From a virus (lineage: Duplodnaviria > Caudoviricetes), in IMG/VR virus record IMGVR_UViG_3300028591_000010, positions 42,374-106,373 of that record: a DNA stretch of 64,000 nt. One strand, written 5' to 3'. This document shows, one piece after another, positions 20,434 to 47,702 of this stretch. The translations under genes and the position numbers were made by a program. The notes under the pieces were generated by a model that saw nothing but the letters and a program-made list of their open reading frames with translations, did no database searches and had not been told where the DNA came from. How positions within the stretch are numbered: position 1 is the stretch's first letter; the number at the start of each line of letters is the position of its first letter.

Positions 20434-20931
20434 TTAATACTTACCTTCTATACAACATATCAAGAATTCTGCTAAGTTATCAACATACTGATACTTTGCT
20501 TCTTTCTCCTCCTGCGTACAATTGGGAGAAGGTAATAGCCAAGAAAGATAATCTCGAATGATTTCAATCTGTATATCAAAATCATCTTTACCTTTCTGTT
20601 TAGAGATACTGTATGCATGTTCAATGCACTGAAATTCTTTCATGAACCATTTAACCCATTTAGAGATACGTTCCCAATATTCTTTTTCTTCATTGGTTAA
20701 ATCGTCCCAATTAATAGTTTTATCAAACTCAAATTGATATTTACCATGTTCAGCAATGCCCAATGCTATACGAGTAGCATTATTACGCTGATCTTTATCA
20801 CGATATATACCAATAAAATTTGAATAAACATGATCTATCCACTTTTCTTTAGCTTTACGCCATTTAAGTGCATAGTTTACCATCTTGGGACAACGGTCCC
20901 GTAACATTTCTTTGTATCCTAATTTCTTCAT
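20434..20931 (-). CDS. Hypothetical protein
   Basis: Intact 165-aa ORF. Confidence 0.7.
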   Translation of the reverse strand: MKKLGYKEMLRDRCPKMVNYALKWRKAKEKWIDHVYSNFIGIYRDKDQRNNATRIALGIAEHGKYQFEFDKTINWDDLTNEEKEYWERISKWVKWFMKEFQCIEHAYSISKQKGKDDFDIQIEIIRDYLSWLLPSPNCTQEEKEAKYQYVDNLAEFLICCIEGKY

Positions 20932-20935
20932 ATTG

Positions 20936-21009
20936 TGATTCCTAATGGATTCGAACCATTGACCGACAGATTAGAAATCTGTTGCTCTATCCAGCTGAGC
21001 TAAGGAACC
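20936..21009 (-). tRNA. tRNA-Arg(TCT)
   Basis: GGTTCCT/AGGAATC acceptor, D-loop AGCTGGATA, ACAGA-TTTCTAA-TCTGT anticodon arm, TTCGAAT T-loop. Confidence 0.9.
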
Positions 21010-21082
21010 GTTACGTCAGCGGCTACTATTATTCACCGCTGACTACTATTACAAATCGTTCATTAGACATTGCCTCACGGCA

Positions 21083-21130
21083 GGAGTGAGGTAGGGATTC
21101 GAACCCCATACTCCAACATAGTCCTCACTC
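21083..21130 (-). ncRNA. Mini-tRNA element directly 3' of the tmRNA coding piece
   Basis: GAGTGAGG/CCTCACTC stem with T-arm TGGGG-TTCGAAT-CCCTA; short linker with no D or anticodon arm. Confidence 0.7.
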
Positions 21131-21350
21131 TGTCTGGGCACTTAGGTAGCCCGTAACACCGACTTTACGCTGCCTCCTTGAGGCCCGTATAGTCTGCAAT
21201 GTTAATATTGCCAGTTAATTTTATATCAGAGCGCTTCACGACTTACCGTCTACCGCTGTCAAATCCAAATAGGCCCAGATACTCATGTTAGACTGGTGGA
21301 CCTAGAGGGATTCGAACCCTCGTCCAAACGGCTTATTCTCAGTCACGCTA
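21131..21350 (-). ncRNA. ssrA: Circularly permuted (two-piece) tmRNA; tag peptide (A)GNINIADYTGLKEAA
   Basis: Acceptor piece ...GGACGAGGGTTCGAATCCCTCTAGGTCCACCA ends at 21294. After a 17-nt intervening segment the coding piece starts GGGCCTATTTGGATTTGAC at 21276. The acceptor stem has G3-U70; the tag ORF 21212-21165 follows TTAACT. Outer boundaries are approximate. Confidence 0.88.
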
Positions 21351-21553
21351 AGATTCTTTTGATGTGATGTTGTCAAATCATGCTACATCTCTTGTGAACT
21401 CTATGATGATCAGTCACAGAATTCGATTTAAGGCCATTTTCAGCCGTTCTAAGGCGTTTTCTAACCTCTAATGGGTAGCTAATCCATAAGCGGTTATTAA
21501 ACGCTTCAAAACGGCTTTTTGGGACCCCATAAAAAGCACATTGCCCTACTACT

Positions 21554-34307: not shown

Positions 34308-34382
34308 TGCTCCATGGTGTAATGGTAGCACGGGAGGCTCTAACCCTCCAGGCCCGGGTTCGATTCGATGGTGGGGCGACCA
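34308..34382 (+). tRNA. Amber suppressor tRNA (anticodon CTA), Gln-like body
   Basis: TGCTCCA/TGGGGCG acceptor with encoded ACCA; GGTGTAATGGTAGCAC D arm; GGAGG-CTCTAAC-CCTCC anticodon arm; irregular T-stem. Confidence 0.88.
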
Positions 34383-41600: not shown

Positions 41601-44600
41601 AAGGATTTGATACATTCTCGGGTAGTAGATATGGATGGGAATCTCAATTTGAGATGATATATCCAGATCCAGATGACATAGAAAAAGATGACTAGAAGAA
41701 CGGATTAAATAAGGGTAATCCTAATTCTAAGTTTGCAAAAACAGCTAAACCGTTCGTAGATTGGTACAAATGGTTAATAAGTACTAGAAACAACCATCAG
41801 AAATTTAGAGACGAAGCAGCAGACCATCTTGACCTATATAAGCTTGCGGCATATTATATATTTGTATTAAGATTTGCACTTGTTGACTCGTTAGAACGTA
41901 ATGCTCAGATTAAAACGTATGATGGCGTACACTTCCATTACGAACCTTGGGATATGGATATTGCCTTAGGTAATAAGAACGATGGTGGTATCGCATTTAA
42001 TCCTCCTGTAGATCGTAATACTAAGTTGAATACAACTACGTATGCCATATCTGGTAGATCTGCAGATTAGAATGGAAACATTATAAGTTCTAACTGGTTG
42101 TGGGATGCTCTTGAAGCGTGGCCAATGTGGATGAACGAAATTGTTCCAAAAGTGGCAGATGCTTTATTTAAAACGGGTATACTTACTTACGATAATGTAA
42201 GTAATATGTTTGATACAGAATATGCGAACAAGTGGTGCGAGATTATGTATAACAGAAGTGGCCACTTTAAGTATGTAGAATCTGCAGGTGGCGATTTTAC
42301 TCGTTGGCTCGGGTGGTTACAGGGAGCTCGTATGTCACACAGACACTGGTGGTTAAGTACTTCAATGGACTATTATGACGCAAAATGGTTCTGTGGTGAT
42401 TATAAAGCACACAAAATATATCTTGCAGCAAACGTATCAGCTGACCCTAATAAATACATTAGGGTAACGCCGAACGGTTCTACATATATGACTGTAACCG
42501 TAAACCAGCTTGATGAAAACGATAACGAAATAGAGGGTAGTGAAGAAGTAGATACCACAAGAGAAGTATCAAAATAGAATCCTTTAATATATAGTATGGA
42601 AGACGGAGCTAGTACAAAAGCTCCTATACACATATACGGTGCAAACTTTATGGAATCTATAGATATGAGTGATATTGCTACCGGTATAGATGGATTAGAC
42701 TTAGTTGGTACATATTCTGAAGTATTAGGCGCTCCTCTTAGAGAACTTAATATAGGTACTCCATTAGTAGGAAGCGGTAATTAGTTTACAACAATACTTA
42801 GTCCATCTACATGTGGTGTATCTCCTGTTCAAAGTGGCAAAAATGCATTCTAGAATCTTGAGACGTTGAATATTCGAGGACATAAGCACCTCGGTAACGT
42901 ATTACAGTTCACGTTTGGTATCAATTAGTGGATTAGAGACTTAAACATGACTCAGCTCAAGAATTTCTATGCTATGGGCTCTAATCTAATTAACTTTTAT
43001 AGTTCTAACGACGGTAATAATTTTAACGATATAGAGCTTCCTTCATCTGTATCCATATTAAATATAAAGAACTCTACATGGAACAACATGACGTTCTGGG
43101 ATACTATAGAAGGATAGAATGAACAAGCTACTCTAAATTATCATCAAACAGAAATAGATACTGGCATATATACAAATATACCTCCGACTGTAAGTGAGGT
43201 GCACTTCTTAGGATCTACAGGTAGAACTAGAGAATCATTGTTATTTATTAGAGAGTGGATTAAATCTATTGTAGCAACTTATGGAGAGAGTGCTCTTTCT
43301 AATTACACTCTCGAAATGGATGATGTATTCTGGTCACCTGATGTAATAGGAAATGATAATGATCTGCTTACGTACGACGAACTCAGACTTATATCTAAAA
43401 CAAGTGGCGGACATCCTAATATTAGAGGATACGTTATGCTGAAATACGAAGGAGCTGGAACAGAGCTTACCTCGCAACAGCTTACAGAAATACGTAACTG
43501 GTTTGGAGATTCTGTATTTACTAAAGGTTCAGCTGGTCTTGTAGTCGACTATAAACACGATTATATTCAGATAAATATTGGTGGTGATATCACCATAGTA
43601 AACGGTGATGTTTATCTAACAGAAGGAAACAATGCCATTCTTAGTGCTACTGAATTCCATCTTGCTGAACCAGATCAATAGAGTTTGTAGAACTACGTAT
43701 GGGCATTAAGTGAACATGGATCTGCTCAAGCATCTCCGTAGATATATGGTGTGAGAATAGAACAGTCTGAACGTGATCACAACTGGTATTTGTTAAGTTC
43801 TGAATCATAGGTTGGTCATGATTACCAAGTAGACGTAAAGGTTGCTGCAGGAAATATTACATATGTAGCTACTATAAATATCATAGCTGCTAAATATCCA
43901 TCTTCTGTGTTTATCGATGTACAACAACCCACTACCGGAGCAGGTAATGTATCTGTTATTAGAACAGTAGGCAATATTGTTACGTTGCATCAAAACGGTA
44001 TGTAGTGTAATCTGTTTATGTCTACAAATGATAATTCTTATACAGCATCTATAAACAGTATATTATACACTATTACTGACGGGGAATATACAACTACATA
44101 TTCTTCTACAGCAGGTCCTACTTGGAGTGGCGATTTATATAATGTGGGAGATCATCTTAATATACAAGAGAATACCTAGGCACTTGGTATGAATAATACT
44201 AAATGTATTAAAGCTACTGCTATGGGTGTTCCTTACGATAACACTATATATGAGTATACTGTGACGGCAGTTATTGAATTTACATCTAATAAGAGAATGA
44301 CTGCTACTAGAAGAATACTTGTTATGAACGATGGTGTTGCTGTGGTTTCTGTAATGCAAGAACACATATATAGCGCGTTCTCAACTGCTTGGAATACTTA
44401 GTTTGGAGAACAATTGACCAAATCATAGTTATATAGAACAGATTTGTTATCAATGACCGGCGCTCTTACATTCAATACCAGCGTCGATAATATAATAGCA
44501 TATTCTGGAACATCTTCAATACTTGCATATTTGCCTAATATAACAGATCTTGTATTTGATGGAAATGCTAATTTAACGAGTACGTTCACCACATTGTCTA

Positions 44601-47599: not shown

Positions 47600-47702
47600 T
47601 GCGAGGTAGCTTAATGGTAAAGCTGGAGACAAGTGCTTGTAAACGCGTTGTGGCGGCAAGTGAAGGAGGCACCTGTAGATGGTTCGATTCCATCCCTCGC
47701 GG
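47600..47702 (+). ncRNA. tRNA-like RNA with normal acceptor, D and T arms but an expanded anticodon domain
   Basis: TGCGAGG/CCTCGCG, GCTT-AATGGTA-AAGC and GATGG-TTCGATT-CCATC, with a ~54-nt middle domain. Confidence 0.7.

Follow-up and report, generated by a model that had tools for sequence, protein, structure and literature searches.

Can a phage carry a ribosome-rescue RNA of its own, built in two pieces and equipped with its own peptide tag? The question is raised by the minus strand at 21356-21131 of a 64,000-nucleotide (nt) stretch of viral DNA (positions 42,374 to 106,373 of IMG/VR virus record IMGVR_UViG_3300028591_000010; hereafter the window), where an original prediction had placed a phage-encoded, permuted two-piece transfer-messenger RNA (tmRNA) with its own tag. 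We find that the locus is a circularly permuted ssrA gene, in which an acceptor piece with a T-arm and an encoded CCA is followed by a 17-nt spacer and then by a coding piece whose tag frame encodes GNINIADYTGLKEAA and ends in TAA. A match to the Rfam model of permuted tmRNAs, covariation in every helix and coding-type substitutions in the tag bear the prediction out. We consider it very probable that this is a working ssrA gene of a crAss-like phage that recodes TAG.

A permuted ssrA gene and its tag

The Rfam model RF04321 (tmRNA_permuted), the kind of model that the original prediction had proposed as a check, matches 21165-21356(-) over its full length (positions 1-213 of 213). The score is 58.2 bits against a gathering cut-off of 47 bits (E = 1e-8 in the 64-kb window), and the locus is the sole match in the complete 106,373-bp phage genome. 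ARAGORN, also proposed, does call a permuted tmRNA here, but its limits (20909-21387) and tag (VAADVTVP) are wrong in the window: the call spans a tRNA-like element and a tRNA-Arg, and conservation backs the other frame. On relatives, ARAGORN calls the same tag family as GNINIADYTGLKEAA. The parts of the gene are listed below, with helix 2, which joins the two pieces, abbreviated P2.

21294..21356, minus: acceptor piece, 63 nt with CCA, comprising the 3′ strands of P2d-P2a, GGAC, the T-arm, the 3′ acceptor strand, A73 and CCA (RF04321 positions 1-62, alignment, pair counts)
21305..21321, minus: T-arm GAGGG-TTCGAAT-CCCTC, 5 pairs, 3 of them compensatory, 100% of cells paired (21 sequences)
21294..21304, minus: 3′ acceptor strand TAGGTCC (21304-21298), which pairs with 21276-21270, discriminator A73 (21297) and encoded CCA (21296-21294)
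21277..21293, minus: intervening sequence, 17 nt, between CCA and G1, predicted to be lost on maturation
21131..21276, minus: coding piece, ~146 nt, comprising GGGCCTA, the D-loop analogue TTTGGATTTGAC, the 5′ strands of P2a-P2d, an A/U-rich linker, the tag frame and a pseudoknot (nhmmer family profile 143 bits); the 3′ limit is taken from the start of a tRNA-like element at 21130
21225..21257, minus: coding-piece strands of P2 (P2a 21257-21252, P2b 21243-21240, P2c 21234-21230, P2d 21227-21225)
Acceptor-piece partners of P2, minus: P2a 21332-21327, P2b 21344-21341, P2c 21349-21345, P2d 21354-21352
21165..21212, minus: tag frame, with resume codon GGC at 21212-21210, the 15 codons of GNINIADYTGLKEAA to GCG (21168), and stop TAA at 21167-21165
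21172..21211, minus: two hairpins within the tag frame, 21211-21196 (GCAAT/ATTGC) and 21184-21172 (GCCTC-AAG-GAGGC)
21136..21160, minus: H-type pseudoknot right after the stop, stem 1 GGTG 21160-21157/TACC 21148-21145, stem 2 GGGC 21152-21149/GCCC 21139-21136

These parts agree closely with what had been predicted. The 3′ module, from GGAC through the T-arm to TAGGTCC-ACCA, ends at 21294; the 5′ module, GGGCCTA-TTTGGATTTGAC, starts at 21276, leaving a gap of 17 nt (21293-21277). The 7-bp acceptor GGGCCTA/TAGGTCC carries the expected G3:U70 pair, and the three proposed inter-piece helices (CCGTT/AGCGG, GACT/AGTC and AGCGT/GCGCT) all hold up, with covariation in relatives. TTAACT stands before the Gly resume codon GGC, and the 15-codon open reading frame (ORF) runs to GCA GCG TAA.

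A profile search and two pattern scans of viral contigs turned up ~30 loci that share this coding piece, to which a third scan contributed another six; almost all of these ~35 relatives sit in crAss-like viral contigs of ~100 kb. In an alignment of the 21 intron-free members, over which 48 pairs in 10 helices were counted, 98.3% of the cells in proposed pairs form standard pairs and compensatory changes, affecting both sides, occur in 24/48 pairs. None of 500 shuffles reached the observed pairing and covariation values, and sliding the 3′ partners by 1-3 columns lowered pairing to 38-44% of cells. Four of the 7 acceptor pairs show compensatory changes, and the G3:U70 pair is U-G in 21/21 sequences, with no variation. 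The 18 pairs of P2a-d include 9 compensatory ones (5/6 in P2a, 2/4 in P2b and 2/5 in P2c), and the T and G partners of one P2c pair are jointly lost in four loci. Both hairpins in the tag frame are supported (compensatory changes in 3/5 and 1/5 pairs, 99-100% of cells paired), as are both stems of the pseudoknot: stem 1 changes from GGTG/TACC to CGTG/TACG in L004 and L009, and stem 2 has compensatory changes in 3/4 pairs. A covariation scan of all column pairs added one pair extending P2a and one on a pseudoknot stem. When the two pieces are co-folded thermodynamically, the acceptor stem, P2a, P2c, P2d and both tag hairpins reappear (z = -3.3 versus shuffles). The RF04321 score and the covariation lie far beyond what chance would give for such a match and structure.

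The tag is under selection at the protein level. The 25 sequences analysed, 24 of them distinct in their tag DNA, encode 17 related peptides. At codons 7-9, 11 and 14 (D, Y, T, L, A) every change is synonymous, and codon 10 (G) departs from this in one sequence only; variable sites number 5, 4 and 11 at codon positions 1, 2 and 3. The stop always occupies the same column, as TAA in 14 sequences, TGA in 11 and TAG in none. The tag frame and the inter-piece pairing, on whose conservation in related phages the prediction had staked itself, are thus both kept. The species-genome scan identified no bacterial donor of the tag: a degenerate tag pattern run against 185,579 bacterial and archaeal species genomes gave one match only, by chance, in a Lachnospiraceae metagenome-assembled genome. 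We rejected that genome as a tag carrier; the match lies inside a protein gene and is without tmRNA features.

The RNA is small, with pieces of ~63 and 146 nt (~210 nt in total). Through P2a-d, pairing between the coding piece and the 5′ part of the acceptor piece runs without a break and stops 12 nt before the resume codon, so that the inter-piece helices P2c and P2d occupy the usual place of pseudoknot 1 (PK1). A single pseudoknot, with both stems covarying, lies 3′ of the tag at 21160-21136, and the circle is broken after it, where PK2-PK4 sit in one-piece tmRNA.

Several observations weigh against reading this locus as a working tmRNA gene. PK1, normally just upstream of the resume codon, is absent, which departs from the canonical build; the all-column-pair scan of the 21-member alignment found neither PK1 nor a further helix. 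The last residues of the tag are ...KEAA, where ...LAA or ...VAA is usual, which makes its action as a degradation signal uncertain. The co-fold pairs the T-loop region with the D-loop analogue and leaves the T-arm unformed, and the 5′ end of the acceptor piece is placed only by the onset of conservation and the P2d pairing. Two relatives, L087 and L039, have AGGCATA or AGACATA in place of TTCGAAT in the T-loop, with all other helices intact; the tRNA-like corner is therefore not strictly constrained in this family. Finally, the support for all family members so far is computational, at the level of sequence. As a separate observation, standard finders may overlook genes with a tRNA elbow altered as in L087 and L039.

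Ends of the two pieces and flanking elements

How would two RNAs be cut from one transcript? A tRNA-like element punctuates the gene directly after the coding piece. It starts, as tRNA or tRNA-like element, 26-57 nt after the tag stop in 27/30 relatives when located by script, and was seen by eye, with a 4-bp T stem, in the remaining three. Its acceptor stem covaries (GAGTGAG, GAATGAG, GGGTGAG, GAGTGTA), and its core ranges from 14 nt, as in the minihelix of the window, to 51 nt, up to full tRNA size; several loci have a genuine tRNA-Met or tRNA-Gln in place of the minihelix. The elements around the gene are as follows.

21083..21130, minus: tRNA-like minihelix, 8-bp acceptor GAGTGAGG/CCTCACTC, T-arm TGGGG-TTCGAAT-CCCTA, discriminator C, without anticodon arm
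20935..21009, minus: tRNA-Arg(TCT), the next gene downstream, in a tRNA-type operon context (ARAGORN; Rfam 68.8 bits)
21396..21424, minus: conserved hairpin with loop CTGATCA, upstream of the acceptor piece; stem changes keep pairing in relatives

RNase P requires no more of a substrate than an acceptor stem and a T-arm, and we therefore infer that RNase P makes both the 5′ and the 3′ end of the coding piece. The minihelix is the likely site fixing the 3′ end, with a cut at 21131/21130. The host's tRNA-processing enzymes would do the cutting, with RNase P acting 5′ of G1 (21276) and 5′ of the minihelix (21130) to release the ~146-nt coding piece. The 17-nt spacer left on the acceptor piece would be trimmed back to the encoded CCA (21294), presumably by exonucleases, or by RNase Z in relatives. 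The acceptor piece precedes the coding piece in all relatives, separated by an unconserved spacer of 17-203 nt. CCA is encoded only in the window and in L003 and L062 among the loci tabulated, while L026 has CCA just beyond the acceptor end. Most other relatives have AC and then other bases at the acceptor end, and so would need CCA addition.

The mascRNA of MALAT1 and MEN-beta and the tRNA punctuation of organelles offer a parallel: there too a mimic of acceptor stem and T-arm lies directly 3′ of another RNA, placed for an RNase P cut. The likeness is an analogy only, as the minihelix at 21130-21083 matches the mascRNA-menRNA model weakly (21.7 bits, under the cut-off of 42.5) and the cleavage in the phage is predicted. 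If cut as proposed, the phage minihelix would neatly illustrate how tRNA-like punctuation can fix the end of an RNA that is not a tRNA. In the RefSeq genome of the related phage cr7_1, the element after the tmRNA (L182:527-593, NC_055895.1 20926-20992) is annotated as 'tRNA-Cys'. It is 67 nt long, has the anticodon ACA at position 28 and overlaps the tmRNA; it is probably a tRNA-like punctuation element and not a decoding tRNA.

A scan around the gene found no sigma-70-type promoter or intrinsic terminator on the minus strand, and we propose that the gene would be transcribed together with the minus-strand early and middle genes and the neighbouring tRNAs. Two other signals stand upstream of the acceptor piece. 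The hairpin with the CTGATCA loop is preceded by GCCTTAAATCGAA, a flanking motif that occurs once in the window, and lies ~40 nt before the acceptor piece in the window versus ~8 nt in most relatives; it is a possible processing site, promoter or regulatory element, or protein-binding site. The motif TTTGACA(A/G)A..GCAA recurs at window 21361-21395(-) and in L003, L007, L062, L079, L010 and L104, upstream of the acceptor piece or inside the spacer. In several loci it stands 20-25 nt before the acceptor piece; some relatives also have it within the spacer, where a terminator-like hairpin separates it from the coding piece that starts right after. This arrangement hints that the motif is a phage promoter and that the two pieces are transcribed separately in relatives with a spacer copy.

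The relatives also carry insertions at two places. A group I intron of 741-840 nt (RF00028, 63-87 bits) splits the T-loop of the acceptor piece in L005, L006, L009, L098, L101 and the truncated L013 (for example L009:5299-6139). It lies after nucleotide 1 of the loop in L006, L009 and L098 versus after nucleotide 7 in L005, and the intron of L009 contains an ORF of ~240 codons on the opposite strand that matches no Pfam family. The tmRNA database paper gives 'permuted' and 'intron' as separate gene forms, and we saw no mention of genes combining both. The longer spacers (176-203 nt; L006, L039, L060 and L098) carry short ORFs, 53-60 codons long, that fall into an L006/L039 and an L060/L098 family, each kept between divergent loci and ending just before G1 of the coding piece; the 17-nt spacer of the window has none.

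The carrier phage and the function of the RNA

Mammalian guts harbour crAss-like phages among their most abundant viruses. The carrier is a complete IMG/VR virus record with terminal repeats, from a gut crAss-like phage whose nearest GenBank relatives are cr272_1 and cr273_1 (Suoliviridae, Oafivirinae; pig faeces); its 2241-aa late protein is 35% identical to their counterpart over 94% of its length. The prediction that this is a stop-recoding phage is confirmed by its plus-strand late block (34965-63870), where long frames appear only with TAG read as sense. The block contains 108 in-frame TAG in 9,290 codons, 36 of them in the 2241-aa frame, and is headed by a tRNA-CUA.

34308..34382, plus: amber-suppressor tRNA, anticodon CTA, at the head of the TAG-recoded late block (ARAGORN)

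The tmRNA and three tRNAs lie in the minus-strand early block, which follows mostly the standard code and is largely without in-frame TAG. The suppressor tRNA and the TAG-rich late block form the usual lytic-gene recoding layout of crAss-like phages. Between two late genes, 47600-47702(+) gives a 103-nt Rfam tRNA match (37.2 bits) that is absent from the ARAGORN calls; possible readings are a tRNA interrupted by an insertion or intron and a further tRNA-like element.

Once made, the pieces would be held together by the 7-bp acceptor stem and the ~18 bp of P2a-d, and host alanyl-tRNA synthetase would charge the RNA through G3:U70 and A73. The complete 106-kb phage genome has no SmpB gene, whereas one is found in the Bacteroides thetaiotaomicron control. 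Host SmpB and EF-Tu would bring the RNA to ribosomes stalled at mRNA 3′ ends. Translation would then resume at GGC (21212), append Ala-GNINIADYTGLKEAA and terminate at TAA. The likely benefit to the phage is extra ribosome rescue during infection, at a time when non-stop complexes would rise through mRNA decay and through amber suppression past TAG-terminated genes. The ...EAA end of the phage tag may also give rescued chains a fate unlike that conferred by the host's ...ALAA. A general role in rescue, or in re-routing tagged proteins, is our default reading of the function.

A narrower purpose would be the recoding itself. Ribosomes would stall at or beyond UAG, either because RF1 competes with the suppressor tRNA or because TAG-terminated host or early genes are read through to the mRNA end, and the tag would avoid a TAG stop for that reason. 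In recoded E. coli, unresolved UAG is indeed handled by ssrA-mediated rescue (PMC6207430). All 7 tested carriers of the tag family are TAG-recoded, as is the window phage: in cr273_1 the portal, terminase and other late genes contain in-frame TAG and a tRNA-CUA is present, and five close relatives with DYTGL tags, together with L152, have 6-11 in-frame TAG in portals that are 83-87% identical. With the exception of cr273_1, however, the tested carriers are close kin at that level of portal identity, and the association may be inherited. In related sequences, the absence of TAG from the tag stop (25/25) is weak evidence. Moreover, permuted tmRNAs with the same kind of tRNA-like domain occur in L123, a distant crAss-like contig with a portal gene free of in-frame stops, as well as in L130, L145 and L156, where no crAss-type portal is detectable. 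The link between tmRNA and TAG recoding is consistent with the data and is not specific to recoded phages, and we regard TAG recoding as the specific purpose of the RNA as rather unlikely.

An RNA without a partner SmpB, pared down to one pseudoknot and lacking PK1, might instead act as a decoy that binds host SmpB, EF-Tu or the ribosome and blocks or diverts host trans-translation, its tag normally untranslated. A precedent is the frame-less tmRNA-like RNA reported for mycobacteriophage DS6A (PMC11915505). A decoy would need no tag, yet here five codons vary only synonymously and a sixth does so with one sequence as the exception, the stop keeps to one column and the 17 peptides are related; the resume context is likewise conserved and host-like. 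This coding selection makes a decoy very improbable.

The least credible alternative is a non-functional relic, a scrambled piece of host ssrA acquired by the phage, for example at an attachment site, and scoring by accident. Our pattern scan did find host ssrA copies at the ends of many viral contigs, and tmRNA genes are common integration sites, but the relic reading is already contradicted by covariation: both pieces persist in ~35 phages, where every helix has compensatory changes and the tag is conserved, the relatives are not assembly duplicates (as the distinct tag DNA sequences show), and the tag pattern occurs in none of the species genomes scanned save for the one chance match in a protein gene.

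Origin and comparison with known tmRNAs

Where does the split form come from? Two-piece tmRNAs of Alphaproteobacteria, some Betaproteobacteria and Cyanobacteria were reportedly described by Keiler et al. in 2000 and by Sharkady and Williams in 2004. The Rfam models of these lineages (RF01849, RF01850 and RF01851) have been merged as RF04321, and none of the three reaches its cut-off on the window ssrA. The best, beta_tmRNA, gives 35.7 bits where its cut-off is 84, with a match confined to model positions 81-162 (the tRNA-like domain), and none of the others appears up to E = 10. The paper that introduced RF04321 states that tmRNAs of the three bacterial lineages usually obtain a better score from their own model than from this merged one (PMC11915505); the window ssrA shows the reverse pattern, passing RF04321 while the lineage models fail. 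The one-piece model RF00023 gives only a 9.7-bit fragment match in the region, compared with ~150 bits for Bacteroidota one-piece genes with the same tool.

The likeness to Bacteroidota that the original prediction had seen in the resume context is borne out: the one-piece tmRNA of Bacteroidota reads TTTTAACTGGCAAC and the window AATTAACTGGCAAT. The window's 3′ tRNA-like domain is identical to those of Bacteroidota one-piece genes at 29-32/38 nt, and the layout of P2a, internal loop and GGTAAG motif is common to both. A pattern scan of viral contigs for the 5′ tRNA-like domain retrieved Bacteroidota one-piece tmRNAs at provirus edges (tags GENNYALAA, GETNYALAA and GNEEFALAA; ~150 bits on RF00023) and many permuted tmRNAs. 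The latter have a Bacteroidota-like 5′ tRNA-like domain and unrelated tags (for example GEQVEMAMAA, GKQINVNFAASRKLAA and DNVYQLGGVQRRFAA), and come from viral contigs 35-178 kb long; RF04321 is the only model passed by the 14 that were tested.

Loci with other permuted tmRNAs: L119, L122, L123, L127, L130, L139, L143, L145, L148, L156, L162, L168, L170 and L178

These loci point to a large pool of viral two-piece tmRNAs that lies outside the three bacterial lineages and has been little described. The original prediction went further and proposed an independent permutation in a phage. The failure of the lineage models, the Bacteroidota-like tRNA-like domain, P2 and resume context, and the lack of a bacterial tag carrier in the species-genome scan together make a separate, Bacteroidota-derived origin of the split form plausible, and we place its chances at about even. 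The comparison with alpha-, beta- and cyanobacterial tmRNA was made through Rfam models rather than sequence to sequence, and tRNA-like domains are conserved everywhere, so the separate origin stays an inference.

The novelty that the prediction implied was overrated. RefSeq annotates 'transfer-messenger RNA, SsrA' at the homologous place in four relatives: cr273_1 (NC_055904.1, 35492-35861), cr272_1 (NC_055903.1), cr7_1 (NC_055895.1, 20629-20985) and cr124_1 (NC_055899.1, 34357-34713). The cr7_1 tmRNA is permuted and scores 66.4 bits on RF04321. These Suoliviridae/Oafivirinae genes share with the window the permuted order, the tag core (GNINVVDYTGLQEAA in cr273_1, DNVNNIVDYTNVA in cr7_1), the place among tRNAs, the tRNA-like element after the gene and TAG recoding. 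The window differs from cr272_1 and cr273_1 in its spacer (17 versus 76 nt) and its encoded CCA, and the phage is only distantly related to them. A search of the literature on tmRNA in crAss-like phages or Crassvirales returned only mentions in methods sections, and no paper describing the RefSeq-annotated genes.

Phage two-piece tmRNAs are themselves published. Buchholz et al. 2022 reported them in the OM43 phage Melnitz and in pelagimyophages, which are marine and T4-like, and counted 53 unique two-piece tmRNA genes in public phage genomes, 50 of them from marine or aquatic samples; the roles they proposed are keeping hijacked translation running or re-routing tagged proteins (PMC9004378). 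Those phages, too, are lytic, carry a complete permuted ssrA and lack their own SmpB. Their tmRNAs, however, are of the alphaproteobacterial type with a glutamine riboswitch, whereas that of the window is Bacteroidota-like, much smaller, flanked by tRNA-like punctuation and found in a gut crAss-like phage.

The two-piece tmRNAs of alphaproteobacteria, betaproteobacteria and cyanobacteria share with the phage RNA an upstream acceptor piece, pieces joined by acceptor stem and P2, a discarded spacer and fewer pseudoknots. The phage RNA is set apart from them by failing the lineage models, lacking PK1 and being Bacteroidota-like, in hosts that have one-piece tmRNA. The Bacteroidota one-piece tmRNA shares the 3′ tRNA-like domain, a similar 5′ domain with the start of P2a, the resume context and the first codons, but is ~395 nt long and unpermuted, with PK1-PK4. 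The phage form is split, ~210 nt, has one pseudoknot and bears a longer tag ending in ...EAA. The gene is thus a further member of an already annotated family, and its value lies in anatomy and biology rather than in discovery.

These strands can be joined in one tentative scenario, which we think possible although the odds are somewhat against it as a whole. The permuted tmRNAs of crAss-like phages, and perhaps of many more viruses, would descend from a separate, phage-borne permutation of a Bacteroidota-type one-piece tmRNA. They would have been reduced to one pseudoknot without PK1 and be matured wholly by tRNA enzymes and a dedicated 3′ tRNA-like element, and their ...EAA tag would give rescued chains a fate unlike that of the host's ...ALAA, favouring the phage during amber suppression. 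If true, the two-piece form would have arisen once more, in addition to its alpha-, beta- and cyanobacterial origins. The family is a naturally minimal tmRNA, at ~210 nt with one pseudoknot and no PK1, and is useful for asking what trans-translation requires. With a conserved phage tmRNA bearing a non-host tag, these crAss-like phages bring their own ribosome-rescue RNA to an infection in which translation during the code switch is poorly understood.

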